DNA from: Escherichia phage ECD7
Length of the DNA stretch: 64,000 nt
Strand: one strand, 5' to 3'
Sequence record: NC_041936.1
Shown: piece after piece, positions 1-30,029 of the stretch
Layout of the letters: every line of letters starts with the position of its first letter
Numbering within the stretch: position 1 is the first letter of the stretch
Made by a program: the position numbers and the translations under genes
The notes under the pieces: model-generated
Database searches by the model: none
What the model was told of the DNA's origin: nothing
What the model saw: only the letters and a program-made list of their open reading frames with translations

Positions 1-94
1 CTCTGCTATTGCATCATTTGCAACGCTAAAGTTTGCAAAATCTTCTCTCGTTTTCTTATCTTTCCACTGATAGGTCACGCCAGCAACAAACATA

Positions 95-919
95 TTACCA
101 TCCTCGCTCTTTACCAATCAAAAATTCAACTTCACGACGTTTAATGTCTTCTTGAAGGTCTTTAATCTTCTGTCGATCTTGCATGATTTCATCCATCTTG
201 TCAAGTGCCGCAATGAAATCATCGAAACGTTCAAAGGTTTTACCTTCATTTGCTTCGCCAAATTTAACCATTGTCAGGCCGTAACGACTACTAAACAGAC
301 GTTTCAACTGTCCAACGATCTTAGAATCAGTGGTTATAACTTCCAATTCTTCTACTTCACGAAAGAATTTTCTATCAGAATCAATAAACCAGCTAGTTCC
401 TTTATGGTCTCTATCTTCGGTTGCGCTCATTAGAGTATGGTCTTTACCATCAATTTCAATTACATCAATTTGCCCACATGGACTAACATTTTTAACAGTA
501 AAAGGTCTATAATTTATTGCTCGTGCAATAACATAATTAAGGTTAGATACGTTTTCAGCATAATGGCAGAAGTCGGTCATAGCATTCGCATCTTTCCAAG
601 TATAAGTTTTACCAACTTCCCATTTCTGGGGAACTTCTTCAACTTCACGAAAGAATTTTCTATCGAATGGACTAAAGAAATATGTTGCCGTCCAAATGTC
701 TTTTCCTGTAGCAGTTTTCGCCGTATGATAAACACCGTCTAGCTCTATTGCATCAATCCAACCGTTACCCTCGATCTCGATGATGGTAAATGGCTTGTCA
801 CCAATAGCTGCACTGATATCGCTGTTAAGTGGAGAAAGAACACCTTCTCCGTTAGTAATAAACTCAGTTTTAGCGTTTTCGTCTTTCCAGGTGTAAGTTT
901 TACCAATTTCCCATTTCAT
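95..919 (-). CDS. hypothetical protein with two tandem copies of a KWExGKTY...DRKFFREV module
   Basis: ORF track 274 aa; internal repeat (MKWEIGKTYTWKD...FDRKFFREVEE and QKWEVGKTYTWKD...SDRKFFREVEE); paralogous to the next two genes. Confidence 0.55.
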   Translation of the reverse strand: MKWEIGKTYTWKDENAKTEFITNGEGVLSPLNSDISAAIGDKPFTIIEIEGNGWIDAIELDGVYHTAKTATGKDIWTATYFFSPFDRKFFREVEEVPQKWEVGKTYTWKDANAMTDFCHYAENVSNLNYVIARAINYRPFTVKNVSPCGQIDVIEIDGKDHTLMSATEDRDHKGTSWFIDSDRKFFREVEELEVITTDSKIVGQLKRLFSSRYGLTMVKFGEANEGKTFERFDDFIAALDKMDEIMQDRQKIKDLQEDIKRREVEFLIGKERGW

Positions 920-931
920 AATATATTCCCC

Positions 932-1417
932 TTAACCGATTTTATCAAGTTCGTTTAATGCTTTCTCTGCTTCCTGTATAGCTTGCACCCTTTCCGGCAT
1001 TTTGTCAAGAAAATCTTTCAACTCTTCAAAACTGGAGATATGACGCAAGGCGTTAGCACCGATAGCCGCATGTGATTTACATTCAAAGCGGATTTTATAA
1101 TTATCCATCGCCAACTTGAGAAGATCTATTAGATCATATTCATGACCAGGCAATAAAACTTCTTTGAAGCACGCTCGGTCGCCATCGGAAAACCATATAT
1201 TATCACCAACATCGATAGAACTAATATAATCCCCTTCGTGATTATAGATTGAACGTACATTACCCCAACGGTCTACAGTAGCGACAGTAAATGGTTTATC
1301 TAGATATGTAAACACACCATCAATATTAGGTTTTTGTTTGTAACGCCAACAATCACGCAAAATGCGCTTTTCGTCCTCACCAACCAACTTATATGTCTTC
1401 CCTTCTTCCCATTTCAT
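932..1417 (-). CDS. hypothetical protein, KWExGKTY module family
   Basis: ORF track 932..1432; likely start at internal Met (MKWEEGKTYK); C-terminal motif ACFKEV. Confidence 0.5.
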   Translation of the reverse strand: MKWEEGKTYKLVGEDEKRILRDCWRYKQKPNIDGVFTYLDKPFTVATVDRWGNVRSIYNHEGDYISSIDVGDNIWFSDGDRACFKEVLLPGHEYDLIDLLKLAMDNYKIRFECKSHAAIGANALRHISSFEELKDFLDKMPERVQAIQEAEKALNELDKIG

Positions 1418-1456
1418 AATATCATCTCTCATTTTTGATACGTGATTCTAATTGGA

Positions 1457-1948
1457 TCATACGGTCGCGCGTTTGCTTGTATTCGCGGATAGCACCGATT
1501 CGGCTAGGCATACCATCCAGTACGCTCTTAATCCTTCTAGGGTAGTGATTTTAGCAATGCTATTATGTAACCCCATCTTATCGGTCAACTGAATGTCGTA
1601 GGCTTCCATAAGCAGACCCAGACGTTCTAAAGTTAGGTCTTCTTCTTTTTCTTCCGATTCTGGAATCTTAGGTTCAATAGTAACTTCGGTAAAGAAACGA
1701 CGCTCACCCGACCAAAACCACACGCCGGAACAACCAATAGGGGATTCTTTTAACGTCATAGAGTCGTAACCACTGCCGATAATAGTAATTTCTCTAACAT
1801 CACCATCATCGTCAAGGTCTTCTACCCTAAACGGGCGACCAGCCAACAAGTCAACAATACATCTGTTAATAGACGACGAAAATTTAGTCAGTTCGGCTTT
1901 CGACGCTTCGCATTCAATCTTGTAAGTTTTACCAACTTCCCATTCCAT
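1457..1948 (-). CDS. hypothetical protein, KWExGKTY module family
   Basis: ORF track 1457..1957; MEWEVGKTYK start and ERRFFTEV motif. Confidence 0.5.
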   Translation of the reverse strand: MEWEVGKTYKIECEASKAELTKFSSSINRCIVDLLAGRPFRVEDLDDDGDVREITIIGSGYDSMTLKESPIGCSGVWFWSGERRFFTEVTIEPKIPESEEKEEDLTLERLGLLMEAYDIQLTDKMGLHNSIAKITTLEGLRAYWMVCLAESVLSANTSKRATV

Positions 1949-1958
1949 AATAATCACC

Positions 1959-2468
1959 TCAAATAATTTTCACTGGAATACTATTAACAATCTTGTATTG
2001 TACTTGATTGTCAGACCCCCGCCACGGCTTCTTCGTTGGCATATCTTTAATATAACGCCCATCGATGAACATGTCAACTGATTCTACAATTTTTCTTTGC
2101 TCATCATTCAATTGGTCAAGGGTATAACCGGACCATAGCCAAATATCTTTATTTGGCATCCATGATTTTACTTCATCGATGATCCGCTGTACACCCTTTA
2201 AATTGCGTTTATACAGTGGATCGCCACCTAAGAATGTTAGCCCCTGAATAAAATCAGGTCTAAGCAGATCCAGAATCAATCCCATTGTATCATCGGTGAA
2301 TGGTTCCCCGTTCTTAGGATTGAGTAGGCTAGCATTAAAGCAACCATCACATGCGTGTGAACATCCGGTAACGTAAAGGGAGACTCTCACTCCCTCACCG
2401 TTAACCATATCACAATCTTTAATATCGGCATAGCGTAGTTTGCCGTATGTATCAGAACTCATATTCAA
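1959..2468 (-). CDS. nrdG: anaerobic ribonucleotide reductase activating protein (radical SAM)
   Basis: 169 aa; Cys cluster GCSHACDGC of the radical-SAM activase type; immediately downstream of nrdD as in T4. Confidence 0.85.
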   Translation of the reverse strand: MNMSSDTYGKLRYADIKDCDMVNGEGVRVSLYVTGCSHACDGCFNASLLNPKNGEPFTDDTMGLILDLLRPDFIQGLTFLGGDPLYKRNLKGVQRIIDEVKSWMPNKDIWLWSGYTLDQLNDEQRKIVESVDMFIDGRYIKDMPTKKPWRGSDNQVQYKIVNSIPVKII

Positions 2469-2604
2469 TTACCCCGAACTCGTTTACAATCTGCGCTTTA
2501 TAGTAACCACCGCGAGATGCTAATAGATAAGCTGGGCTTAGGTATTCGTATTCACGGATTTCTACTTGTGCGTTTTCAGTTTCCCAAATCAGTAAAGTCC
2601 ACAT
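2452..2604 (-). CDS. small hypothetical protein (about 50 aa)
   Basis: ORF 2452..2679 trimmed to the internal Met preceded by AGGAGAATCAAAT and lying downstream of the promoter at 2647-2675. Confidence 0.35.
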   Translation of the reverse strand: MWTLLIWETENAQVEIREYEYLSPAYLLASRGGYYKAQIVNEFGVIEYEF

Positions 2605-2646
2605 ATTTGATTCTCCTGTAAAGTTGTATCTCGTCTTGATGAATAT

Positions 2647-2675
2647 AGTATAGGGGATCTCGCGATCCCCGTCAA
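2647..2675 (-). promoter_or_regulatory. early sigma70-like promoter TTGACG-17-TATACT with palindromic spacer (GGGATC..GATCCC)
   Basis: Hexamers and spacing read on the minus strand; anchored to the ATG at 2679; followed by leader and SD AGGAGAATCAAAT. Confidence 0.5.
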
Positions 2676-2679
2676 GCAT

Positions 2680-3228
2680 TTATTTTAAATTTTTTCGAAT
2701 GTATTCAGACCATTCCTTCCCTGTCATTTCGGACCCGTTCTGGAAACTGAAATATTCATACGGCATCGAGTCAAGATAAAACAGGATCATACATCGCGCC
2801 ATATAATACCAATCACGATTAAAGTAAACTACGTTATCACCAGTACCATCAACCCCTTTATCATAACCATCGCGGGTACGGGCGACCCATTGAATAGTAT
2901 CATTTTTCTCGCGGATCGTAACAGGTTCCCAATATCCAGCACATCCAGCATGACCACACAAACAAGTCAGGAAATATTGACCTTTTGCTTTGTTGTCATC
3001 CCATTCACGATGGATTGGTTCGATCTCGTGAAACAGTGCTAAGCAATCATGATTATGCAACACTGGCTTACCATCAATCAATGCATGGAATGTATACAAA
3101 CGACCAGTAGACAAATAGCTATCCTCACGCTCAACCAGTTCAATAGCAATCTTTTTAGCTCGTTCTTTGTGTCGTTGTGCTTTACGCTTACGGTTTAATG
3201 ATTTCATATTCACCTCACACATTATCAA
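2680..3228 (-). CDS. hypothetical protein
   Basis: ORF track 182 aa; no recognised motif. Confidence 0.5.
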   Translation of the reverse strand: MIMCEVNMKSLNRKRKAQRHKERAKKIAIELVEREDSYLSTGRLYTFHALIDGKPVLHNHDCLALFHEIEPIHREWDDNKAKGQYFLTCLCGHAGCAGYWEPVTIREKNDTIQWVARTRDGYDKGVDGTGDNVVYFNRDWYYMARCMILFYLDSMPYEYFSFQNGSEMTGKEWSEYIRKNLK

Positions 3229-3770
3229 AGGTCGCGATATAGTACATTATGAAAATGAGAACTTGCATTACCAATATTGTAGATAATAAATTCTTCATCC
3301 GGCGCTTGCGCTACAAATTGAGTATGAGCAACCGCCACAACCTTAAAAATACGATCCGTGATCTTGTGTTTAATTTCGGCTCCTACTTCCATAGGAACAT
3401 ATTCATGTGTTTCTGTTTCAGTCGCAAAACAGCCATCTTCTTCATAAGCACGAACAAATCGATCGCAATCAGTACGCTTAACAAATTCAAGAGTATACAA
3501 TTCTCGTGAATTGTCGGTATAGACTAATACAGAATTATTCTGATAGCGAATCACATACAGGTTATTATCATCGTCAATTACGCAAAAGCTACGGATTTGT
3601 GTTCCTTCGCCTTTACTCCAGCAGATATTAACCACAGTTCCTCTAATAAAAAAACTTTCCTTTAAATTAAAACTAGCCAATGTGCTAGCGTGCATTTTAA
3701 CAACAACACCATCGCCAATTTCCAGTTTACGAAGTTTAACTTCTTTGCTCAGTACACAAAACATCATCAT
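3225..3770 (-). CDS. hypothetical protein
   Basis: ORF track 181 aa; promoter and SD upstream; ATGATGATG start. Confidence 0.5.
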   Translation of the reverse strand: MMMFCVLSKEVKLRKLEIGDGVVVKMHASTLASFNLKESFFIRGTVVNICWSKGEGTQIRSFCVIDDDNNLYVIRYQNNSVLVYTDNSRELYTLEFVKRTDCDRFVRAYEEDGCFATETETHEYVPMEVGAEIKHKITDRIFKVVAVAHTQFVAQAPDEEFIIYNIGNASSHFHNVLYRDL

Positions 3771-3799
3771 GTTGTCCTCTCGTTGTTTTCGATGTGAGC

Positions 3800-3827
3800 A
3801 TTATACATTAGCTAATCATGTTGTCAA
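3800..3827 (-). promoter_or_regulatory. early promoter TTGACA-16-TATAAT (AT palindrome ATTAGCTAAT in spacer)
   Basis: Consensus hexamers downstream of the nrdD terminator and upstream of the 3770 start. Confidence 0.55.
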
Positions 3828-3830
3828 CAC

Positions 3831-3864
3831 CCCAAAACGAAAAAGCCGACCCTTTCGGATCGGC
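3831..3864 (-). terminator. rho-independent terminator after nrdD
   Basis: Hairpin GCCGATCCGAAAGGGTCGGC followed by TTTTTCGTTTT on the minus strand. Confidence 0.6.
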
Positions 3865-3870
3865 TGAAAT

Positions 3871-5733
3871 TTACATGTGCTTAACGCGGTTTACCATCTC
3901 GGAGTGTTTCCCGTGATTAAATGGACGCAGATCAACAGATCCAAGATATCCACTAACGCGACGGATAACATTCATCTTTTCCAGATTGTCATTGCCGCAA
4001 TCAGGACAAACAAAACCAGACTCGGTCGCTCTCATTTCCTTATTAGATCCGCATACATGACATACATCAGAAGGAGTATTAACACCGAAGTAGTGCAATT
4101 TATCCATTGCATAGTCTACTACAGTTTCAAGACCTTTCAGGTTGTTTTTCATGTCTGGGAACTCAACATAAGAGATCATGCCACCGGACGCCAGCCAGTG
4201 ATAATCTTTCTCAAAGTCGATTTTCTCAAATGGTGTGACTTTCCGGTCTACGTCAAGGTGGAATGAGTTGGTGTACCAGTCTTTATCGGTAGCACCCTTA
4301 ACAATACCAAATTGCTCTCTGTCCAGTCGATTAAATCGATAGCAAAGGCTCTCGGCTGGCGTACCGTAAAGACTAAACCCAAGTCCGGTTTCATCCTTCC
4401 ATTTTTCAGTATAATGACGCAAGATCTTAAGAATATGTTTACCGTATCGCTGCGCATCTTCCGAATCAAACGGATGAACACCAAACAGGACGCTCAATAC
4501 CTCATGTAAACCAATATATCCAAGAGAGATACTAGCGCGACCATCTTTCAGAACTTCCAAAATTTCATCGTTTTGATGAATACGGAAAAATGCACCTTCG
4601 GTATACAGCACCGGAGCAACATTGGCTTTAGCACCTTTTAAAGCGTCTACGCGACTCATGAGAGCATCAAAGCAAATAGGCAGACGATTAGCTAGCTCTT
4701 GTTCGAATAGCTCAATTCTGCGCATTACAGACGCTTTACCAGCACGACGCGCGGCAATAAGAGCAATACGCGGAAGATTCAGAGTCACAACACCCAAGTT
4801 ATTGCGTCCGTCTAATACTTCCTCGCCTTTCTCATTATGCCACACACCCAGGAAGCTACGACAACCCATCGGGCTAACCGGAACACTAGATCCAGTGATA
4901 CTACGGTTATTCTTCGCAGAGATATAATCAGGGTAAAGACGCTTACTAGAACATTCCAATGCAAGTTGCTTAATGTCGTAGTTCGGATCTTCCGGTTTAA
5001 GGTTTAATCCTTCTTCTAAGAACATCACCAGCTTAGGAAACACCGGAGTGATACCATCTTTACCTAAACCTTTAGTTCGAACGTTCAGGATCGCTTTCTG
5101 AATCAGTTTTTCTTCCCAGCTAGTACCCATACCAAAGGTTAAAGTCACAAAAGGCGTTTGACCGTTGGTGGAGAACAAAGTGTTGATTTCATATTCCAAC
5201 GCTTGATACCCGTCTAAAGTTTCTTTTTCTGTCTTCTCTTGTGCATAGAGAGTATCAGCTTTGATTCCGTAGGTTTCGGCATCAGCAAGGTGTTTATGAT
5301 ATGTTTTCTCAACATACGGTGCTAACACCTGATCGATGTTTGCGATTGTGGTCCCGCCATATTGATGACTTGCCACCTGTGCGATAATTTGAGCGGTTAC
5401 AGCACAAGCAACGCCGATCGATTTCGGACTTTCGATTTGTGCGCTACCCAATTTAAAACCATTCTCTAACATGTCTTTGAGATTAACAAGACAGCAGTTA
5501 GTAAACGGCATAGCGGGTGCATAATCCATATCATGATAATGAATATCACCGTCTACATGCGCTTTATAGATGTGCTCAGGTAACACGGTTTTAGCAATCT
5601 GTTTAGACACAGCACCAGCAATCAGATCTCGACGTGTCGGGAATGTTCGCGCGTCTTTGTTCGCGTTCTCTTTGCTTACTTCGTTTTCTTTACCCGTTGC
5701 GATCTCTGTAATGTCTTTGATTAGTTTTTCCAT
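3871..5733 (-). CDS. nrdD: anaerobic ribonucleoside-triphosphate reductase (glycyl radical enzyme), uninterrupted
   Basis: 620 aa; C-terminal glycyl-radical motif RVSGYLG and Zn-ribbon CHVCGS...CPDCGN; no intron in the ORF. Confidence 0.95.
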   Translation of the reverse strand: MEKLIKDITEIATGKENEVSKENANKDARTFPTRRDLIAGAVSKQIAKTVLPEHIYKAHVDGDIHYHDMDYAPAMPFTNCCLVNLKDMLENGFKLGSAQIESPKSIGVACAVTAQIIAQVASHQYGGTTIANIDQVLAPYVEKTYHKHLADAETYGIKADTLYAQEKTEKETLDGYQALEYEINTLFSTNGQTPFVTLTFGMGTSWEEKLIQKAILNVRTKGLGKDGITPVFPKLVMFLEEGLNLKPEDPNYDIKQLALECSSKRLYPDYISAKNNRSITGSSVPVSPMGCRSFLGVWHNEKGEEVLDGRNNLGVVTLNLPRIALIAARRAGKASVMRRIELFEQELANRLPICFDALMSRVDALKGAKANVAPVLYTEGAFFRIHQNDEILEVLKDGRASISLGYIGLHEVLSVLFGVHPFDSEDAQRYGKHILKILRHYTEKWKDETGLGFSLYGTPAESLCYRFNRLDREQFGIVKGATDKDWYTNSFHLDVDRKVTPFEKIDFEKDYHWLASGGMISYVEFPDMKNNLKGLETVVDYAMDKLHYFGVNTPSDVCHVCGSNKEMRATESGFVCPDCGNDNLEKMNVIRRVSGYLGSVDLRPFNHGKHSEMVNRVKHM

Positions 5734-5745
5734 TGTATCACCTAT

Positions 5746-5768
5746 GAAAAAGCGGGATTTCTCCCGCT
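5746..5768 (-). terminator. terminator-like hairpin plus U5 ending 13 nt upstream of the nrdD start codon
   Basis: AGCGGGAGAAATCCCGCT + TTTTT then CATAGGTGATACA-ATG on the minus strand. Confidence 0.45.
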
Positions 5769-5777
5769 CGTTGATAG

Positions 5778-6272
5778 TTATTTTACCAGTTCTGCTAATT
5801 CTTTTTCCGCCGCTTCCAGTTCAGCTTTCAGTTGTTTGATCTCTTGTCGCTTCTTATTAGCGGCTTCCTGCTTACTATTTCGGATAACCTGATCTAGATA
5901 CAACTCCCAATCCTGAATATTTTTGATAATGTAACCGTCAACATTAATTGGTCGGAGATTCAGTACAGCTTCCAGTTTAGTTGGAAAAACTTTAATTGCT
6001 GGGGTGAAGTATTCATATTCGTTATCTTCAAACCAATAACCTAGACTTGCATTATCAATACGAAGACGAAGTTCAAGATCAAGGTCTTTATCTTCGGTGT
6101 ATAGGTCTTTTACACACCCCATAGAATTAACAACAACTTTAAAACGAATTTTATCTACACCACCAAACACATCAGTAAGGATACCAGCAATTGAGCTATT
6201 AGCGCAAGATTGGTCGCTGAATGCGTCAAGGTTTTCTTTAGTTACAGTATACCAAACATCTTGTACCCACAT
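5778..6272 (-). CDS. hypothetical protein
   Basis: ORF track 164 aa; coiled-coil C-terminus. Confidence 0.5.
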   Translation of the reverse strand: MWVQDVWYTVTKENLDAFSDQSCANSSIAGILTDVFGGVDKIRFKVVVNSMGCVKDLYTEDKDLDLELRLRIDNASLGYWFEDNEYEYFTPAIKVFPTKLEAVLNLRPINVDGYIIKNIQDWELYLDQVIRNSKQEAANKKRQEIKQLKAELEAAEKELAELVK

Positions 6273-6302
6273 AATATAATCCTCTCGTTGTTAAGTGGGA
6301 GT

Positions 6303-6330
6303 ATTATAGCATACTCCCTTTGCACGTCAA
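6303..6330 (-). promoter_or_regulatory. early promoter TTGACG-16-TATAAT with stem-loop GGGAGTAT/ATACTCCC spanning the -10
   Basis: The -35 overlaps the stop of the upstream gene; leader ends GAGGATTATATT-ATG. Confidence 0.5.
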
Positions 6331-7505
6331 GCACTAACTTTTTTCTTTACTGCTTTCACCTTCTGGCGAATTGCTCGAATCTCTTCGATCTCTTTTTCAG
6401 TATCTTTAACAATTTCTTTGCGATTCTGAATATCTTTATCGAGATTATCATCAAGTTTAGGCAGCATGTCAATCAAGAACTTTTTAAGGTCTTTCAGGTT
6501 TCGGATAACAGCACCTTCACCCATTACCGCCACACCAACACCATCCGGCAGATCACCAAACAGCTTAACCAGTTCAGACAGATGATCATGATCTTCTAGT
6601 GCTTCTTCCGGTTCAGATGGCAGTTCAACAAAGTTATAACGTTCATCATTGCTGATCAAGTGATACCACCAAACCCCGAAAGATTTCGGTGTATATTCTA
6701 CACCATCAATTTCAACCGCGTCAACACTTCCATAATCATCTACTTTAGTTACCTTAAATCCTTGTCCCAGCTTTTGAACAATTTCAACAACATTACTTGA
6801 TACAGTTTCAGCGGTAAACCAATATGGCAAATTATGCTGATTTGGCTTGTAGCGTTCACCTACTTTAAATCTCTGACCAGCCGCTTGCATAGAATGAAAT
6901 TGTTGTTTCGTGATTTCCGCGAAGTATTCAAATTCGCCATCATCAAACACACAAGCCCATTGATCACAAAAACGATCTGCCTTAACAGTTTCACCTTTCG
7001 CGGTGATCATGGTAGCTGATCCGTGCAATTCTTCTTCAACTAAAAAGCCATATTCGGCAAAATCAACAAGTTTCATGGCTTCTTTATGCTCTGGGTCATG
7101 CTCTCCCCAGAATCGCTTAAATTCTTGCAAACCTTCTGGGGTAAACGAATAACATTTACCTTTTTCAAAGTAAGTCGGCATTGCATCCTCTTTCTTGTTC
7201 ATCGCTTCGTATGCCTCTTTTGAGATGCGTTTAAAGTATTTACGCTCATTGTGCATAATCATAGTAGCCCAATAATCAACAATATCATTAGCGGAATAAA
7301 CTACATCTCCAGCTTCAATAGTAATAACATGACCGTGGTCATCTTTTTCTAATACTTTAAAGCCCTTTTCGACGATTTCAGCAACCCGAATATGACCACG
7401 GCGCGAAGCATCGGTCAGAATAATTGAATAGCGAGAAAAGTCTAGAAACTCATCTTTACCGCCTTCACGGAATGCATAGTAATGACCTTCAAAGAATTTA
7501 GCCAT
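6327..7505 (-). CDS. hypothetical protein with two internal GFKV...ERKYFKRI-type modules
   Basis: ORF track 392 aa; repeats GFKVLEKDDHGHVITIEAGD...NERKYFKRI and GFKVTKVDDYGSVDAVEIDG...NDERYNFVEL. Confidence 0.55.
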   Translation of the reverse strand: MAKFFEGHYYAFREGGKDEFLDFSRYSIILTDASRRGHIRVAEIVEKGFKVLEKDDHGHVITIEAGDVVYSANDIVDYWATMIMHNERKYFKRISKEAYEAMNKKEDAMPTYFEKGKCYSFTPEGLQEFKRFWGEHDPEHKEAMKLVDFAEYGFLVEEELHGSATMITAKGETVKADRFCDQWACVFDDGEFEYFAEITKQQFHSMQAAGQRFKVGERYKPNQHNLPYWFTAETVSSNVVEIVQKLGQGFKVTKVDDYGSVDAVEIDGVEYTPKSFGVWWYHLISNDERYNFVELPSEPEEALEDHDHLSELVKLFGDLPDGVGVAVMGEGAVIRNLKDLKKFLIDMLPKLDDNLDKDIQNRKEIVKDTEKEIEEIRAIRQKVKAVKKKVSA

Positions 7506-7536
7506 AATATAATCCTCTCGTTGTTTAGATTGTAGT

Positions 7537-7565
7537 ATCTTACTACTCCCGTTTCATCATGTCAA
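7537..7565 (-). promoter_or_regulatory. early promoter TTGACA-17-TAAGAT with dyad GTAGTA/TACTAC
   Basis: Anchored between the 7562 stop and the 7505 start. Confidence 0.45.
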
Positions 7566-8128
7566 GCGTTAAATGACTTTTGGATCTCTTTCAGTTCAGC
7601 TACTTTATCGGCGCTATATTTTGCTTGATGTTCCATGCGCTTAATCTCACCTTTGATATAGGTTTCTAGCTTAGGTTTATTCTCAATCAGAAAATCTTTC
7701 AAGTCATCGGCATTTTTAAAGTATAGCTGATTATCAAAGCTAAAATCTTCCAGCGTCAATGATACCAAAGAAGACTTCGCAAACAAGTTAATCAGATCTT
7801 CCAGCGATTCTTCTTTCTTAACTGGTTTCATTTCTTCAAACTGCTTTTTAGTGATGCGTTTAAAGTATTTGCGCTCGCTTGCATCAATCATGATTGACGC
7901 GCCCTCATAATCATGAGTTTCTACCAAATACACTTTACCCATAACATTAACCGTAAGAACTTTAAAGCCCCTGTGAAGCACACCATACAGGAACTTGTTA
8001 TGTTGTGGATAGCGTTTAACAAATTCCTCTACGGACTCAGCATTACGGAAAGTGTAATAACGACCTCGTTCAAAAACAGCATCATTTGAAGACTTAGCCG
8101 GATACAATTTATACGTTTTCTGTACCAT
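7562..8128 (-). CDS. hypothetical protein, same module family
   Basis: ORF track 7562..8146; MVQKTYKLYP start; GFKVLTVNVMGKVYLVETHD...SERKYFKRI. Confidence 0.5.
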   Translation of the reverse strand: MVQKTYKLYPAKSSNDAVFERGRYYTFRNAESVEEFVKRYPQHNKFLYGVLHRGFKVLTVNVMGKVYLVETHDYEGASIMIDASERKYFKRITKKQFEEMKPVKKEESLEDLINLFAKSSLVSLTLEDFSFDNQLYFKNADDLKDFLIENKPKLETYIKGEIKRMEHQAKYSADKVAELKEIQKSFNA

Positions 8129-8142
8129 AATATAATCCTCTA

Positions 8143-8415
8143 TCATGTCACTAATTGAACAGCACGAAACAGAATGCGGTCACACGGAAGCAGCATAAAT
8201 TCCCAACGCGGATCAAAATCTTTAGCGGTGTATGTTTTCCCATCAACAGAGATTTCACTTACATAACCAATAGGTGACACTTTAAGAACAGTAAATCCAT
8301 TTTTGATTGCTTCGTAGGTATCTTTCAGACCTTCGTAGTCGTCCTCTAAGAAGTCTTTACGTGCTTGCTCAGATTTAAAAACATAGGCAACACCAGCTTT
8401 AAACATCTTACGCAT
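8143..8415 (-). CDS. hypothetical protein, related module
   Basis: ORF 8143..8475 trimmed to the Met preceded by GAAGGAGAATCAACA; GFTVLKVSPIGYVSEISVDG motif. Confidence 0.45.
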   Translation of the reverse strand: MRKMFKAGVAYVFKSEQARKDFLEDDYEGLKDTYEAIKNGFTVLKVSPIGYVSEISVDGKTYTAKDFDPRWEFMLLPCDRILFRAVQLVT

Positions 8416-8446
8416 TGTTGATTCTCCTTCTTGATTAGATGGGAGC

Positions 8447-8475
8447 ATTTTACTACTCCCATTTCTTATTGTCAA
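8447..8475 (-). promoter_or_regulatory. early promoter TTGACA-17-TAAAAT with dyad GGGAG/CTCCC
   Basis: Upstream of the 8415 start (SD GAAGGAGAATCAACA). Confidence 0.45.
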
Positions 8476-8478
8476 CTA

Positions 8479-8952
8479 CTATCTTAATCTTTGTATGAAT
8501 TGTTTCTTATACTTCTTCGTGATCTCTTCTCGTGTATCAGCGTCGCAGTAATCGAAACCTTCTGCGTCCATAATATCAACCATCTCCGCGCGTGTCAAGC
8601 GTGAAAATCGTTTTACTTTATCAACAGCATATTGAGGATGTAAATGATTGTTGGTGTAGTCTCCTTTGATGTAATTAACATAGTTTGTAGCCCAAACAAC
8701 GAAATCAGCACCTAAAGCACCAACACCAAACCGTTTAAAGTCTCCGGTCAACGATCCTTCTAGGCGGTTGCAACACGAATGAAGCAATCCCCTTACGCGG
8801 CCTTGCCCTTTACCATCTAGATCGTGGTCGTGGTCAAGATGGTTTTTGCTCATATCCTCAAAAAGTGGCAATTGACAAAGGGGGCAAATGCCCCCCTGTT
8901 TTTCGAATAGTTCTTGTTTGTACTCTTTAGCACTCTTAGCAGTCAGTAACAT
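8479..8952 (-). CDS. 49: recombination endonuclease VII (Holliday junction resolvase)
   Basis: NHLDHDHDLDG...GRVRGLLHSCCNRLEG matches the T4 gp49 Zn-binding/catalytic region; MLLTAK start parallels T4 MLLTGK. Confidence 0.85.
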   Translation of the reverse strand: MLLTAKSAKEYKQELFEKQGGICPLCQLPLFEDMSKNHLDHDHDLDGKGQGRVRGLLHSCCNRLEGSLTGDFKRFGVGALGADFVVWATNYVNYIKGDYTNNHLHPQYAVDKVKRFSRLTRAEMVDIMDAEGFDYCDADTREEITKKYKKQFIQRLR

Positions 8953-8976
8953 AAATTCACCCTCCAAAGAAGGTAT

Positions 8977-9270
8977 TTAACCATTAATCTTGTTTTTGAC
9001 TACAAAGGATCGGAACTCATCAAAGCCACCGATATAATCACCATCATAGAAAATCTGCGGCATGGTGGCAATAACTTCTACCCCTGCGCGATCCTGAATG
9101 TCGGCAATGATAGAATCAATCTTTACAGGGCGACCGTTTTCGTCCACACCATCATTGACAGGAATATAGATGTAAGGGATCTTACGCGATTCACAAAGGC
9201 GCTTTGCATTCTGGCAATACTTACAGTTGTAACCTTCAAAACCAAAAATTTCTACCATGTTGTACCTCAA
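8977..9270 (-). CDS. nrdC: phage thioredoxin/glutaredoxin (NrdC-like)
   Basis: CKYCQNAKRL redox motif and TMPQIFYDGDYIGGFD closely parallel T4 NrdC. Confidence 0.8.
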   Translation of the reverse strand: MRYNMVEIFGFEGYNCKYCQNAKRLCESRKIPYIYIPVNDGVDENGRPVKIDSIIADIQDRAGVEVIATMPQIFYDGDYIGGFDEFRSFVVKNKING

Positions 9271-10079
9271 TCTACGTTAGTTACATAAACTTCTTGTGTA
9301 TCAGAAGACTTACCACCTGAACGATCTAGGCAATAGGTCTTATTCAACAGGACGCAGTTTAAATCATTCCGCTTGATAAAGTCAAGGAGATGATCATTTA
9401 CCTTTCCCTTATGATGTGTGACATTACTGATACCAAACCGAAAACCACGCTCCATAATAGATTCTACCCACTGATAGAATTTAATCTCTTCCTCGTCACT
9501 CCAGAACTTATTATATTCCGCAGAAGTGATAAGGTACGGCGGGTCCAAATAAACGAAATCACCTGGCAAGATCTCGATCTCGTCATAACGACCAGAAGTA
9601 AAACTGATTCGACCGTCTTTGTTTTCTTCCTTAAAATTCAGGACACGCTCTACCGCGTTTTCGTTAAAAGTCCGGCGACCAAAATTAGCATTAAATTCGC
9701 CCTTCCGGTTATGGCGGTTAATGTTGCTAAAACTGTGCTGAATCAGAACAAACAGAGATAGCGGATCTGGATTCTCATTATACTTCTTACGGAATGCCAT
9801 GTAAGCATCTTTATCATCACGAGACAAATCATTTTCGGCAATAATCCGCTTGATCGTAGAAACCGGATCAGGACACTCGTCAATCGCTTTGTACGCTTCA
9901 ATTAAGCGGTGATCATAGTCATTAGCCAGCACATCCCCTTCGACGTACAGAGACACGCTCAAGCCGCCACAAAAGGCATCAACAAAGCGGTTATAGTGCT
10001 TAGGGAAATACTTACTAACACCTGGCAATAGCTTTTCCTTATTGCCAGTATAGGGAATTAAACCTAATGCTTTCTTCAT
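9267..10079 (-). CDS. dam: DNA adenine methyltransferase (Dam family)
   Basis: 270 aa; motifs YTGNK, NRFVDAFCGGLSV, DFVYLDPPY and ISNV, collinear with T4 Dam. Confidence 0.9.
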   Translation of the reverse strand: MKKALGLIPYTGNKEKLLPGVSKYFPKHYNRFVDAFCGGLSVSLYVEGDVLANDYDHRLIEAYKAIDECPDPVSTIKRIIAENDLSRDDKDAYMAFRKKYNENPDPLSLFVLIQHSFSNINRHNRKGEFNANFGRRTFNENAVERVLNFKEENKDGRISFTSGRYDEIEILPGDFVYLDPPYLITSAEYNKFWSDEEEIKFYQWVESIMERGFRFGISNVTHHKGKVNDHLLDFIKRNDLNCVLLNKTYCLDRSGGKSSDTQEVYVTNVD

Positions 10080-10510
10080 TATCCCTTCCTCAAATAAGTT
10101 CTCTCAAGCTCTACCAGTTCGAAAAATTCTTGCCAATCACACGGAAAATTGCAGTTTCCAAAATGGTCTTCGTTATAGAGTTCTTGACCGGATGGCAACT
10201 TAATATCTGTTACGCTGTAGTATCCGCAACAATCGCAATCACCCTCTGTATATTCTGTTTTGGTAGGAATATCCATCATTGCCAGATACAAAGGTACATC
10301 GTCTTGCTCAAAGTTCATGTAACCTTCATGGTCAAACGAGACAAAGTTATCATCACCACCGAAAGGGATATAATGGTCATAATCGGTTATAGGTTGACCG
10401 TGTAATTCCCATTCTACAATTTTAACATTACCACTAAACTTTATACCCATAATTTCAACAAGAAAATGAGTATCGTCAATGTAAATCTTACTAGGGGTTG
10501 GATAAACCAT
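10079..10510 (-). CDS. hypothetical protein
   Basis: ORF track 143 aa. Confidence 0.5.
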   Translation of the reverse strand: MVYPTPSKIYIDDTHFLVEIMGIKFSGNVKIVEWELHGQPITDYDHYIPFGGDDNFVSFDHEGYMNFEQDDVPLYLAMMDIPTKTEYTEGDCDCCGYYSVTDIKLPSGQELYNEDHFGNCNFPCDWQEFFELVELERTYLRKG

Positions 10511-10520
10511 TATATAATCC

Positions 10521-10817
10521 TCATATCTCAGAGAATAGAATCTCTGTTAGCTTCACTGACTGCTCTCTGAATGTTAGCGTATACTCGAAAGGAAAGTCAA
10601 CACCCAACTTCAAAAGAGAATAGCCTACCGCCTCTTTATGCTTATCGGTTAGGGCGATCCTAACCAATTCCCGTTGAATCTCTTTAGGCGGTGAATGGAT
10701 AGTAACACGGGTATCATGTAATGTCCAGTCACCATTTCGAATTAAGATTAACGGTTTATCATCATTGAAGATCACCGACCCCTTTCCGGTCGGTGAATGT
10801 TTTATATTAATCATCAA
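10521..10817 (-). CDS. hypothetical protein
   Basis: ORF track 98 aa. Confidence 0.45.
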   Translation of the reverse strand: MMINIKHSPTGKGSVIFNDDKPLILIRNGDWTLHDTRVTIHSPPKEIQRELVRIALTDKHKEAVGYSLLKLGVDFPFEYTLTFREQSVKLTEILFSEI

Positions 10818-11028
10818 ATTCTAAGAAATATTCTGGAACGATATAACCGTTAAAGTCATTGCACTTATAAAAATGTGGTGCATTTAATGCTGGATGAGCA
10901 TTAGTAAAGAGTTTACCCTCTAGAAACAGAATGTAATTAATCGGTCTAATACCGACAGAATCAGGGTCTAAACCTTTTTCTTTCAGTTCAGCCAGCGTTA
11001 AAACTCGTCCAGATCGTAACTTAGCCAT
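10807..11028 (-). CDS. hypothetical protein
   Basis: ORF track 73 aa. Confidence 0.4.
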   Translation of the reverse strand: MAKLRSGRVLTLAELKEKGLDPDSVGIRPINYILFLEGKLFTNAHPALNAPHFYKCNDFNGYIVPEYFLEFDD

Positions 11029-11314
11029 GATTTACCCCCAATTCATCAAGATTATGTCGCAGCATTTCAGAGTATTTTTCTACTTCCTTAATCTTAGTGT
11101 GGATATCCACGATCTCATCCACACTATCAGAAATTTTAATGGCATTCGCGAGCGTGCTTTTACCCGCTTTCACAGTCTCTTTCATTTCAACCAACATGTC
11201 CGCGTGTTTCAATAGTAATTCTTCACGTCGAACATAAGCGACGGTCAAAGCCTCATCAGCGATTTCTAAAGCATTTTCAGCGACACCAACAACCATTTTA
11301 CGAGTAGACAGCAT
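11021..11314 (-). CDS. hypothetical coiled-coil protein
   Basis: ORF track 97 aa. Confidence 0.45.
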   Translation of the reverse strand: MLSTRKMVVGVAENALEIADEALTVAYVRREELLLKHADMLVEMKETVKAGKSTLANAIKISDSVDEIVDIHTKIKEVEKYSEMLRHNLDELGVNHG

Positions 11315-11328
11315 AAATTCACCTCACA

Positions 11329-11637
11329 TTATTTCACATTAACGCCGTCATCAATCCAGCCGACGCTATTTGGTTTAACAGTTTTACCATAGGATGCATA
11401 CTTAATCAAGCATGGTTTAACATCATTATCAAATCTTCCTAAACGTACCCCAAGATCAGGAATATCCATGTAGGCGGCTTTATATCCCCATGTGCCATAT
11501 TCAGAATCAATCTCAACCGGACGGCCTTTAAAAGCATACACTACACCGTGACGGTCAACGATAACATAGCAATAACCAGCCGGAAGATACACAGTTTCGC
11601 CGTAAACTTTAACTGGAGTAGCAGAAGAGATAAACAT
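11329..11637 (-). CDS. hypothetical protein
   Basis: ORF 11329..11673 trimmed to the Met behind GAGGATTATATT; promoter at 11672-11700. Confidence 0.45.
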   Translation of the reverse strand: MFISSATPVKVYGETVYLPAGYCYVIVDRHGVVYAFKGRPVEIDSEYGTWGYKAAYMDIPDLGVRLGRFDNDVKPCLIKYASYGKTVKPNSVGWIDDGVNVK

Positions 11638-11671
11638 AATATAATCCTCACATCGTTCATTTGATGCGGTC

Positions 11672-11700
11672 ATTATATGATAACCGCATTTTCATGTCAA
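11672..11700 (-). promoter_or_regulatory. early promoter TTGACA-17-TATAAT with dyad ATGCGGT/ACCGCAT around the -10
   Basis: Consensus hexamers; leader GAGGATTATATT-ATG. Confidence 0.55.
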
Positions 11701-11708
11701 CAGTTTTT

Positions 11709-12071
11709 TTAAAAATCTTCGTCCGGTTTATATCGACCGTCATCGACTGGTTTTGGACTGAATCCTTTATGCGTGCGCGGCTTCGCTTCCGGTTTACCAG
11801 CAATCATCAAACCAAAACATTTCATCCCCTTATAACACATAACAATATCAACCACGGTCCACGTTATAGGCCATAAGATTGCAGCAATACAAAATGCTCC
11901 TGTATCGACCTCTTTGGTGTCCTTGTCGAATCTGGCATACAAGCAGAATACTAGATACGAGATCATTGCACCAGTAACCCAGATATAAAGTACATTAACA
12001 ATATCTTGTGTTGTCAAATTGTCCTCCTTACATGTCTTGCAGTGCATAAAAGCATTTTTCTTCGTAGTCAT
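11709..12071 (-). CDS. hypothetical membrane protein
   Basis: ORF track; two hydrophobic segments; the listed first codon is non-ATG so an internal ATG is used. Confidence 0.4.
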   Translation of the reverse strand: MTTKKNAFMHCKTCKEDNLTTQDIVNVLYIWVTGAMISYLVFCLYARFDKDTKEVDTGAFCIAAILWPITWTVVDIVMCYKGMKCFGLMIAGKPEAKPRTHKGFSPKPVDDGRYKPDEDF

Positions 12072-12306
12072 AGAAAATGTCAAAGTATGCTTTTTCTACA
12101 TACTCGCCATTGATCCAAGCGGCAGTAACAATCAGAGTGGTCCAGTTAGATCCGCTCTCAACGGTAAAGGTTTTAATACCCAGCTTCGCTGCCAAGTCGA
12201 ACGCAAACCGGACGCAACCACGGCAGGAAGTGATATTGGAAGTTTTGATTTTAAAGCCACCGCGAGTTTTAGAAATTTCTACTTTAGCGAAAGACAGGTT
12301 GCTCAT
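12028..12306 (-). CDS. hypothetical protein with CRGC motif
   Basis: ORF track 92 aa; SD AAGGAGAATCAAA; promoter at 12349-12377. Confidence 0.45.
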   Translation of the reverse strand: MSNLSFAKVEISKTRGGFKIKTSNITSCRGCVRFAFDLAAKLGIKTFTVESGSNWTTLIVTAAWINGEYVEKAYFDIFYDYEEKCFYALQDM

Positions 12307-12348
12307 TTTGATTCTCCTTAAGAAAGTGTGTTTCGTTTTGATGTGTGT

Positions 12349-12377
12349 AGTATAGGGGATACGTGATCCCCTGTCAA
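12349..12377 (-). promoter_or_regulatory. early promoter TTGACA-17-TATACT whose 17-nt spacer is the palindrome GGGGATCACGTATCCCC
   Basis: Anchored between the 12386 stop and the 12306 start. Confidence 0.55.
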
Positions 12378-12385
12378 CAACTTTT

Positions 12386-12715
12386 TTATGATTTTAGTGA
12401 ATTAACCACTACATCAAAATGATGGACAGAGCACACCTTACGAAACACATATTCATCGTGTTTCGGGATCTCCCCTAACCTCTCTATTTCGCTCGCCATA
12501 ACGATAAACTGTTTATCTGGTGCATATGCCTTGTATGCTTCAACAACGCACGGAAAACGCGTTTTAGAGAGTTCTGGATAGTTTTCTGAATCCAGAAGGA
12601 CAATGAATACTCTGTTACATTGATTGTAGAATCCTGTTTTTGATTTCATCAAGTTTTCTTCTATGTTCAAGTCGCGCAATCTTCTTTTCATGATTTCGTT
12701 GGTTCTTGTCTTCAC
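12386..12715 (-). CDS. hypothetical protein (overlaps upstream ORF by about 100 nt)
   Basis: ORF track 109 aa. Confidence 0.4.
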   Translation of the reverse strand: MKTRTNEIMKRRLRDLNIEENLMKSKTGFYNQCNRVFIVLLDSENYPELSKTRFPCVVEAYKAYAPDKQFIVMASEIERLGEIPKHDEYVFRKVCSVHHFDVVVNSLKS

Positions 12716-12956
12716 AGTTTACCCACTCAACAAGATCTTTACCTAACTCGAAAGCCCATTCTCGGTCTTGCTTTACGTTTTGTAGGTATGGACTTTCTGA
12801 CACTCTACGAAGTGATGTTGTCGTAACAAGAATGATCCCAGAAATGGTCGGATGTTCCTTTCCATATACAATAGGACGCGAGTCACGTTCAATACCCTGT
12901 AAGAAGGTGTATCCTGAATCACTTAGGATCATATACATTTTCATTTCATCCATCAC
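12615..12956 (-). CDS. hypothetical protein
   Basis: ORF track 113 aa. Confidence 0.4.
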   Translation of the reverse strand: MMDEMKMYMILSDSGYTFLQGIERDSRPIVYGKEHPTISGIILVTTTSLRRVSESPYLQNVKQDREWAFELGKDLVEWVNCEDKNQRNHEKKIARLEHRRKLDEIKNRILQSM

Positions 12957-13210
12957 AGTTTCCTCAACCAGTTATTAAAGCGAGTAAACCATGATGCTTT
13001 TCGTGCTTCTTTTACTTTATGTGCACGTAAACCACTGAAACACCATTCATAATCATCACTGAAACATGATTCAACAGGAACACCCGCATTTCGTAGTTCT
13101 CTGGTCTTTATCATGAATCCTTGACATAAGGGGCGACCTTCAACAATAATAGGAAGTTTAACTTTTTCCATGAAAGTATACCCAGCACGGTCAATAATTT
13201 CAATTTTCAT
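12953..13210 (-). CDS. hypothetical protein
   Basis: ORF track 85 aa. Confidence 0.45.
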   Translation of the reverse strand: MKIEIIDRAGYTFMEKVKLPIIVEGRPLCQGFMIKTRELRNAGVPVESCFSDDYEWCFSGLRAHKVKEARKASWFTRFNNWLRKL

Positions 13211-25476: not shown

Positions 25477-25815
25477 TCACACCTTTAAAGTCATAGACGC
25501 ATAAACATTAATGCCAGTCCAGTTAGGATCGCAATTATACTCAACATCCCACAAATAAAGCGGTTTAGATGTATCAGCCAAGTTTTTAAAATCTTCTACC
25601 CACATTTCAAGGCTATATGATGGATAAACTAGGCTATCATATCCGCCGTAACGTTGGCCTACTGGTCGGTCAGTAAAAACTACCTCAAGATCCGGTAATT
25701 CTTTTTCAAGGATAACCGCCAGCGCATAAATCAGACGGTCTTCCTTGTTACGCTGCCGAAGGACCGTTGTCAGTTGGGTTTTCTGGTTCACTAGCAAGCA
25801 CCTCCACATTTTCAC
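25477..25815 (-). CDS. hypothetical protein
   Basis: ORF track 112 aa; overlaps upstream ORF by 68 nt. Confidence 0.4.
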   Translation of the reverse strand: MKMWRCLLVNQKTQLTTVLRQRNKEDRLIYALAVILEKELPDLEVVFTDRPVGQRYGGYDSLVYPSYSLEMWVEDFKNLADTSKPLYLWDVEYNCDPNWTGINVYASMTLKV

Positions 25816-26068
25816 AGAATGAAATTTTCACAGACACAATTTTACCATAAGTGAAGAATGAATATACATTATCGAGATATTCAACGTCACCTACAATCAC
25901 ATCAAACTGCGGATCAGCAACTGCCGCAACATATTCTACCAGTTCATCAAGAGAATGCAACTTAATTTCATCAATTCGGCTGTATTTGGTTGCATCTTTA
26001 ATTTTAAAACCACGTTCTTTCAGCTTGTCAATCAGAATTTCACGCGGAGTTTCAAACAGTTTGCTCAT
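25748..26068 (-). CDS. hypothetical protein
   Basis: ORF track 106 aa; SD GAGGATTATATT. Confidence 0.45.
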   Translation of the reverse strand: MSKLFETPREILIDKLKERGFKIKDATKYSRIDEIKLHSLDELVEYVAAVADPQFDVIVGDVEYLDNVYSFFTYGKIVSVKISFCENVEVLASEPENPTDNGPSAA

Positions 26069-26089
26069 AATATAATCCTCACATTAAAT

Positions 26090-29584: not shown

Positions 29585-29959
29585 TTAAGAAAATTTTACT
29601 TCGTCTACAATGTCTTTCATGACATTGATTTCCATTCCGGTCAGAACACGTTGGAACATGTGCTGAACATACGCTTTCAGGTATTCATTTGACGGCTTGC
29701 TATCAAAAGTCTTTTTAGTGTAGTAGTCATCACCGAAAGCTACTGTAATTACATTTTCGTCGTCATTCCAAGCGATATAAGCAAATTTGCCGTTATCCCA
29801 GAAGCGAGCACTAATTGCTACTTTTGTTGAATCGAATCCTAATTCGCTGTGAGATTCAAGAACTACTTGCGTGCCAGTTTCTTTATGAATGTAGTAGCGG
29901 GATACTAAGTCAAAGTTACGGGTGTAGTGACATTCGAATTTATCTTTAAACATCATCAT
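29585..29959 (-). CDS. hypothetical protein
   Basis: ORF 29585..30028 trimmed to MMMF behind AGGAGAATCAAA; promoter near 29997-30025. Confidence 0.45.
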   Translation of the reverse strand: MMMFKDKFECHYTRNFDLVSRYYIHKETGTQVVLESHSELGFDSTKVAISARFWDNGKFAYIAWNDDENVITVAFGDDYYTKKTFDSKPSNEYLKAYVQHMFQRVLTGMEINVMKDIVDEVKFS

Positions 29960-29996
29960 TTTGATTCTCCTAAGTGTGTTTCGTTTCGATATGTGT

Positions 29997-30025
29997 ATTA
30001 TTCTATAGTCGTTTATGGTTGTCAA
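29997..30025 (-). promoter_or_regulatory. early promoter TTGACA-17-AATAAT
   Basis: Downstream of the terminator after the acb1-like gene; coordinates anchored to the 30069 stop. Confidence 0.45.
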
Positions 30026-30029
30026 CACC

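Follow-up and report, generated by a model that had tools for sequence, protein, structure and literature searches.

What are the seven related genes that lie on the minus strand between positions 95 and 8415 of a stretch of Escherichia phage ECD7 DNA, and what might they do for the phage? The stretch analysed here, referred to as the window, comprises 64,000 nucleotides (nt) of sequence record NC_041936.1. Its first 8.5 kilobases (kb) match 54 Krischvirus genomes, RB49, Phi1, JSE and GEC-3S among them, with 96-97% identity; these are RB49-like T4-type phages of E. coli, which belong to the Straboviridae and fall outside the Tevenvirinae. A previous reading of the letters alone (the sequence-only reading) had described the genes as a paralog family built on a module of about 90 amino acids (aa) and had stated that no known function could be assigned to them. 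This last statement has to be revised, since the module is homologous to GoF and Frd.2 of phage T4, a family with genetics pointing to messenger RNA (mRNA) stability (PMC12152347). The cluster is almost certainly a lineage-specific expansion of this GoF/Frd.2 family.

Several searches converge on this identity. T4 GoF and Frd.2 both fall in phrog_622 (E 5e-38 and 4e-46, respectively), which is also matched by six of the seven window genes (E 3e-4 to 4e-19). A hidden Markov model (HMM) of the window modules matches GoF over aa 3-91 with 30.5 bits and Frd.2 with 18.5 bits, and the hhalign probability for GoF is 94.9%. When single T4 sequences are compared with a whole Krischvirus genome by phmmer, genes of the family are the best matches of both GoF and Frd.2. 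PHROGs tie the genes to one another and to families labelled 'goF mRNA metabolism modulator', a label that RefSeq already carries on two of them. Pfam and NCBIfam gave no meaningful match for the seven proteins (weak RecT, LYR and HALZ matches were below threshold and were disregarded); in particular, none of the seven matches PF03197 (FRD2) at E <= 1, and this model is matched by two of 34 distant relatives (best E 3.4e-6). GoF and Frd.2, together with MotB.1, were described in 2025 as a family with an 'LSm-like fold' by Kim et al., whose paper mentions neither RB49 nor Krischvirus, and neither paralogs nor proteins with several modules (PMC12152347). Neither goF nor frd.2 is mentioned in a five-genome comparison from 2006, and no description of the multi-module architecture, the shared tail or the nrd-linked arrays was found in the literature searched.

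The module itself withstands statistical scrutiny. All-against-all BLASTP ties the seven open reading frames (ORFs), the coordinates of which were confirmed, at 25-44 bits, and shows that two of the proteins contain repeats of the unit of about 90 aa. In a leave-one-gene-out test, nine modules were excised and, for each gene, an HMM made from the modules of the other genes was searched against the 601 six-frame ORFs of the 64-kb window. The gene left out was recovered with E values of 4e-28 (95-919), 1.5e-12 (932-1417), 5e-14 (1457-1948), 1e-22 (6327-7505), 5e-11 (7562-8128) and 9e-13 (8143-8415), and the best unrelated ORF in these searches had E > 0.009. Two further minus-strand ORFs, 25751-26083 and 29588-30028, recur as marginal HMM matches (E 0.007-0.8); each has a PHROG of its own (16584 and 15253) that is not linked to the family, and both are regarded as non-members. 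In the alignment, G8, Y11, F41, G50 and F83 are invariant, and the motifs that had been named from the sequence are real: the module opens with (K/R)(W/F)E.GK.Y, has a central (P/G)F.V and closes with (D/E)R..F.(E/R)(V/I). The conserved residues form the core, and the surfaces are variable. Thus the proposed paralog family is borne out by both BLASTP and the leave-one-out HMMs, its motifs align above chance level, and the estimate of nine or more copies in 8 kb agrees with our count of 10 complete modules in the window, plus an eleventh that is truncated by the window edge at 1-93. The family genes and the repeat within one of them are as follows (ORF names are those of RB49).

1-93, minus strand: first 31 codons, MFVAGVTYQWKDKKTREDFANFSVANDAIAE, of the ORF048c ortholog, an eighth gene of the family, its module truncated at the edge of the window (from translation)
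95-919, minus strand: ORF049c, 274 aa, two tandem modules at 629-919 (aa 1-97) and 338-628 (aa 98-194), and a C-terminal tail at 95-337
347-376 and 635-664: 30-nt direct repeat, 97% identical, the copies 288 nt apart (exactly one module) and encoding DRKFFREVEE
932-1417, minus strand: ORF050c, 161 aa, one module (1142-1417) and a tail
1457-1948, minus strand: ORF051c, 163 aa, one module (1664-1948) and a tail
5778-6272, minus strand: ORF057c, 164 aa, one divergent module (about 5988-6272) and a coiled-coil tail
6327-7505, minus strand: ORF058c (RB49 'frd.2'), 392 aa, three tandem modules at 7191-7505 (aa 1-105), 6882-7181 (aa 109-208) and 6597-6881 (aa 209-303), and a tail at 6327-6596
7562-8128, minus strand: ORF059c, 188 aa, one module (7793-8086) after a leader of 18 aa, and a tail
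8143-8415, minus strand: ORF060c, 90 aa, one module without a tail

Intragenic tandem copies had been predicted in two ORFs, and they do exist; the number was wrong for 6327-7505, which holds three modules rather than two and accordingly matches phrog_622 in three stretches (E 3.7e-19). The two modules of 95-919 are 51% identical to each other, and this protein matches phrog_5347 (E 1e-92) and, in two stretches, phrog_622 (E 7.5e-19). In 7562-8128, the N-terminal 'VQKTYKLY', which had been taken for a module start (as 'xQKTYKLY'), is not one; the protein has a single module that begins at F19. The gene 5778-6272, proposed earlier as a possible member, is a divergent but true one: it is marginal with the nine-module HMM (E 0.002-0.14), and it is recovered by broader profiles from which it had been excluded, both a full-length one of 34 sequences (E 1e-10, hhalign 97%) and a module-only one of 57 sequences (E 7.8e-9). 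It also matches phrog_3710 (E 4e-4), as does GoF (E 8e-12). The window-module HMM gives 42.9 bits for the full-length RB49 ORF048c, which was outside the training set; this protein is a member of phrog_5347 with a further match to phrog_622.

Comparison with the three T4 proteins shows what is shared and what is particular to the window genes. GoF (ComC-alpha, 141 aa, early) has, at its N-terminus, a homologous barrel of about 90 aa containing the motifs KFEVNKWYQFK, EPFKIL and EAGFFDEV, followed by a linker and a small tail, which is the same plan as that of the window genes; it differs in having one module and a short strand-helix tail, whereas the window genes have one to three modules and a longer tail composed of a helix-hairpin-helix and a coiled coil. 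In T4, goF has gene 39 and motB as its neighbours; the corresponding site of RB49 is empty. Frd.2 (128 aa; PF03197; PHROG 622) is the protein after which the RB49 annotators called the 392-aa gene 'frd.2', and that gene is its sole significant phmmer match (E 3e-4); Frd.2 has one module in contrast to the three of the 392-aa gene, which shows no synteny with T4 frd.2. MotB.1 gives a weak match over the full module with the window-module HMM (9.2 bits) and matches phrog_622 at E 1.3e-3, but it represents a separate branch (phrog_2333), and phmmer with MotB.1 finds no relative in the Krischvirus genome.

Structure prediction points in the same direction. The AlphaFold2 model of the 161-aa protein (m4a9d2bab7c9f; 35 aligned family members) has a mean predicted local distance difference test score (pLDDT) of 80.8 and shows strand 1, two helices and strands 2-5, followed by a tail made of a helix, a beta-hairpin, a helix and a long helix. 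The module is thus predicted to be an SH3/FeoA-like five-strand beta-barrel with two helices inserted after strand 1, and the modelled modules have the bent five-stranded antiparallel sheet of the N-terminal domain of GoF, of Frd.2 and of MotB.1. In the model of the 392-aa protein (mdcc8efb5b9f0; mean pLDDT 81) the barrel pattern appears three times, joined by low-confidence linkers, and the tail ends in a helix of about 55 residues; its predicted template modelling score (pTM) is low (0.41), which indicates domains strung like beads, without reliable packing against one another. A tail with the helix-hairpin-helix and the long helix is found in six of the seven genes (8143-8415 lacks it), the linkers being of low pLDDT, so that the window proteins show the arrangement typical of the GoF family, a barrel, a flexible linker and a variable C-terminal domain. 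The long helix of the tail probably mediates self-association. For GoF itself, no confident multimer models were obtained by Kim et al. (PMC12152347).

Foldseek comparison of the models with the PDB returned nothing below E 0.07, a sequence search of the PDB returned nothing significant, and there is no family member with a solved structure. Against predicted viral structures, Foldseek found 54 proteins at E <= 1e-3, most of those with a name coming from T4-type phages with a wide variety of hosts. An 'Hfq-like' label was considered and dropped, because the modules have FeoA, Tudor, KOW and the Mib repeat as structural neighbours; no Hfq or Sm protein is among the top structural matches, and for this reason 'SH3/FeoA-like barrel' is the safer description. 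Kim et al. likewise found FeoA to be the closest (PMC12152347). With FeoA and the C-terminal domain of DtxR/IdeR, which are SH3-like barrels with inserted helices, the likeness is at the fold level only (12-17% identity), and the window proteins do not belong to the FeoA family (PF04023): there is no Pfam FeoA match, metal ligands are lacking, and nothing links the proteins to iron transport. With Hfq and Sm/LSm proteins the modules have in common a bent antiparallel sheet of five strands with SH3-like topology, as well as the link to RNA that is suspected for GoF. They differ in the place of the helices, which in the window modules come after strand 1 and ahead of strand 2 rather than preceding strand 1, and in the lack of Sm motifs, which places them outside that family.

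The cluster lies in a region (1-12000) where every gene is on the minus strand. Read in the direction of transcription, from high to low coordinates, the order is endoVII (gene 49), ORF060c, 059c, 058c ('frd.2'), 057c, nrdD, ORF055c, 054c, 053c, nrdG, ORF051c, 050c, 049c, 048c and nrdH. The family genes therefore form two blocks, separated by nrdG, three unrelated ORFs and nrdD, and the gene order confirms that they flank nrdD and nrdG, as had been noted. The three ORFs between nrdG and nrdD have no kinship to the module family in PHROG and window HMM searches. A functional tie of the family to nrdD/nrdG was considered and dropped, adjacency being its sole support. T4-type phages have a variable early region between genes 55 and 49. 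The cluster is kept in 57 of 57 Krischvirus records. Two other observations were made in the neighbourhood. Pfam DUF7170 is matched (E 2.4e-17) by an ORF of 75 aa (2452-2679, minus strand) that overlaps the start of nrdG; of this ORF, RB49-group annotations call the last 50 codons only. In GEC-3S, an HNH homing-endonuclease gene (12205-12960, to be compared with 8977-10079 of the window) stands between nrdC and dam; the window and RB49 are without it, dam following directly after nrdC.

The family is small. Searched exhaustively with the profile, 1.84 billion representative proteins yielded only 53 clusters at E <= 1e-3, about 45 of them genuine, with 83-392 aa, one to three N-terminal modules and one of a few tail types; about eight were rejected as spurious, being long and repetitive (FN3-like and similar) and matching profile positions ~31-87 only, many times. 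A word-indexed protein search with the module profile retrieved only close Krischvirus relatives. Within the Krischvirus genome the family is limited to the nrd cluster, with dc2 as one probable exception. This RB49 gene (NC_005066, 11993-12628, outside the window), immediately upstream of the helicase gene 41, would probably bring the family to nine: its aa 16-110 form a barrel, accompanied by a tail of the type seen in the cluster, the broad module HMM finds it (E 2.9e-8), Foldseek hits ECD7 Dc2 (E 2.6e-6), and in PHROGs it stands in its own family only (16187). Since gene 41 mRNA is what GoF(D25Y) acts on in T4, this position is a curious one. More distant arrays also exist. In an uncultivated, very divergent T4-like contig (L015, 7887-13566), five consecutive two- or three-module genes lie directly upstream of an nrdD that is split by a homing endonuclease; this nrdD is at most 69% identical to any deposited phage, and tblastn of the three-module protein of L015 against phage genomes gave no match. 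In a distant metagenomic T4-like contig (L016, 323-1147), a two-module gene adjoins nrdH. These two contigs indicate that the nrd-linked multi-module array is not peculiar to Krischvirus.

With respect to expression, a consensus scan identified two candidate promoters on the minus strand, both of which coincide with promoters annotated in GEC-3S.

8447-8475, minus strand: sigma-70-type promoter-like site, TTGACA-17-TAAAAT, upstream of the gene run 8415-6327
6303-6330, minus strand: second promoter-like site, upstream of 5778-6272

The late-promoter motif TATAAATA does not occur in 1-9300, and the family genes carry good ribosome-binding sites. Judged from these signals, the family genes are probably early, like goF. 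A near-identical leader with its ribosome-binding site (AACAACGAGAGGATTATATT-ATG) precedes three genes (6270-6295, 7503-7528 and 3765-3790), and a further promoter-like site (3800-3827) and a stem-loop (3844-3865) are also present. This set of leader, promoter and stem-loop resembles the mobile 'promoter-early stem-loop' cassettes that were reportedly described in RB49-group phages by Arbiol et al. in 2010.

What could such proteins do? By extension from GoF, we tentatively favour, at somewhat less than even odds, the idea that the family consists of early, non-enzymatic, multivalent binding proteins that act post-transcriptionally on the fate of phage mRNA. Each gene would supply one to three non-enzymatic barrels, transcribed early from sigma-70-type promoters; the barrels would bind phage RNA, or shield it from decay or from premature 3' end formation, and tandem modules together with a self-associating tail would raise the valency. 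The analysis establishes the homology, the fold class, the architecture and the population dynamics of the locus; early timing, self-association and any action on RNA are inferred. The background for this proposal comes from T4. GoF is an abundant early protein, its D25Y and G84R changes rescue T4 on rho mutants, and GoF(D25Y), but not wild-type GoF, lengthens the half-life of mRNA with the gene 41 leader (Kim et al., PMC12152347). In addition, a knock-down screen of T4 found frd.2 to be the sole 'Fit' gene whose function is unknown (PMC11879866). In the window, the column of GoF G84 has K or R in five of nine modules, the preceding column being R in eight of nine, and the column of GoF D25 has Y or F in four of nine, suggesting that the modules natively carry residues like those gained by the GoF suppressors. 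The modules 338-628, 1664-1948 and 7191-7505 combine an aromatic residue at the D25 column with K or R at the G84 column. The equivalence is firm for G84, because it lies inside the aligned (D/E)R.(F/Y)F motif. The promoter-like sites, the lack of late-promoter motifs and the dN/dS values (given below), by which selection is seen to maintain the genes, also speak for the proposal.

Several points weigh against this proposal. The equivalence is soft for D25, because this column adjoins an alignment gap. Wild-type GoF and MotB.1 have little effect on reporters, and direct RNA binding has been shown for no member of the family (PMC12152347). The isoelectric point (pI) is below 7 in six of the seven proteins, which is unusual for RNA binders: it is 4.6-5.3 in five and 6.2 in 8143-8415, and 7562-8128 (8.95) is the sole clearly basic member. 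The inter-module arrangement is not confidently predicted, as the pTM given above indicates, the early timing is read from consensus promoter matches only, and the fold neighbours are mainly protein-binding domains.

The nearly inert wild-type GoF, the unproven RNA binding, the acidic pI and the protein-binding fold neighbours make a protein-adaptor function the main rival, which we consider possible but rather doubtful. Under it, the barrels would dock on the host Rho, RNA polymerase or RNase E machinery, with paralogs and alleles for different targets or variants. SH3, Tudor, KOW and FeoA domains usually bind proteins, and the nearest folds include, besides KOW, Tudor-like domains that bind RNA polymerase (the C-terminal domain of PcrA/UvrD, CarD and RapA). 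The acidity of most members, the conservation of the core only, with variable surfaces, and the link of GoF genetics to rho alleles (PMC12152347) are also in its favour, and the swapping of module alleles would fit the tracking of targets. Nevertheless, a pull-down with GoF-His from uninfected E. coli yielded essentially GoF alone (PMC12152347), and no partner is known for any member.

The population genetics of the locus bears on the remaining explanations. Identity between modules is 18-51%, and two subgroups can be distinguished, a left block (KWE.GKTY, PF.V) and a right block (F..G.YY.F, GFKV), a pattern that is consistent with old local duplications. Across nine Krischvirus genomes, nonsynonymous divergence (dN) and its ratio to synonymous divergence (dN/dS) are 0.014-0.11 and 0.13-0.35 in the family genes, 0.002-0.003 and 0.03-0.07 in nrdD, nrdG and endoVII, and about 0.011 and 0.13-0.24 in the unrelated ORFs 054c and 055c. 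The family genes are under purifying selection, relaxed relative to the enzymes, and there is no gene-wide positive selection (no gene exceeds 1).

Superimposed on this, the locus is reshuffled at the level of domains. For both ORF048c and ORF050c, two module alleles that differ greatly are joined to tails that are near-identical or identical (in 932-1417, compared with RB49 and Phi1, the module is a different allele and the tail is identical), and for ORF059c all four combinations of two module and two tail alleles are found among Krischvirus genomes. A one-module allele of ORF049c is present in three of 57 genomes (E26, ELT4 and AV108); in E26, module 1 is joined to the tail at the DRKFFREVEE repeat motif. 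This allele is explained by the 97%-identical 30-nt repeat, spaced exactly one module, which is likely to be a substrate for module loss or gain. The 5' ends of the modules share 32-nt stretches (78-94% identical) that could drive module rearrangements too. In a Krischvirus-like contig (L011, 5001-5465; Logan SRR11185258), a 154-aa chimera of 051c and 049c replaces ORF051c, 050c and 049c; its first part is the 051c module's N-terminal half, onto which the 049c module's end and the 049c tail are fused, and the downstream 048c is split into two ORFs. In the window, a 1-nt deletion near 1532, seen in DNA alignment with RB49 and GEC-3S (GAAGG-ATT versus GAAGGTATT or GAAGGGATT), frameshifts the last ~33 codons of 1457-1948. 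The original coiled-coil tail can still be read in the other frame (1425-1550), and the remnant ORF matches HMM positions 128-161 (E 1.6e-4); the deletion could be a real mutation or a sequencing error. In phage FL15 (L010, 1532-2012), the ORF050c ortholog is annotated as two overlapping short ORFs, suggesting a frameshifted or disrupted copy. The sequence-only reading had spoken of ongoing duplication and diversification, which is right only in part: the paralogs are old, as their identities and dN/dS values show, and the locus is still being reshuffled, as one-module alleles, allele swaps and the chimera attest. In other words, the duplications are ancient, and copy number and allele content are still changing.

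The sequence-only reading likened the pattern to that of host-takeover or anti-defence families. In an anti-defence or decoy family, copy number and alleles would reflect an arms race with host immunity, and the accessory region, the multicopy state, the apparently early expression, the divergent alleles, the module-number polymorphism, the chimera and a dN that is 5-35 times that of nrdD, nrdG and endoVII could all be cited for it. We regard this as improbable, as dN/dS is below 0.36 in every gene and similar in the unrelated neighbours 054c and 055c, the cluster is kept in every Krischvirus record, no member is tied to a defence system in the literature found, and dS is high in the variable genes, which suggests exchange of old alleles rather than rapid adaptive change.

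A bolder version of the RNA proposal, to which we give very little credence, holds that the multi-module proteins are natively active, multivalent RNA-protecting scaffolds that coat phage transcripts or act as their chaperones and guard them against Rho-dependent 3' end formation or host RNases, with allele swapping arising from conflict over host RNA targeting. The coiled-coil tail would join barrels, so that, for example, three barrels in a dimer would make six, an Hfq-like valency. If true, this would be the first phage-encoded multi-domain RNA chaperone system of the Sm/SH3 type. Finally, it is quite unlikely that the array is cargo, for the most part dispensable, in a region prone to recombination, under weak selection and with no coherent role, an idea for which the frameshifted copy in the window, the broken ORF050c of FL15 and the collapsed array of L011 could be invoked, but which fits poorly with purifying selection on all members, retention in 57 of 57 genomes, arrays in the same neighbourhood in very distant T4-like phages and the fitness effect of frd.2 knock-down (PMC11879866).

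Whether the modules act on RNA, as we tentatively propose, or otherwise, what is new here is an architectural variant and an expansion of the recently described GoF/Frd.2 family. GoF has been puzzling since the 1970s, as its mutants rescue T4 on rho-mutant hosts and the wild-type protein has no known activity. Krischviruses hold a natural series of 11-12 diverged copies of its module, in one-, two- and three-module formats, which amounts to a ready panel for finding out what this module binds. In addition, the locus gives a clean case of domain-level shuffling among paralogs in a lytic phage, and the distant nrd-adjacent arrays suggest that the expansion is recurrent and probably useful in the early regions of T4-type phages, rather than an oddity of one genus.

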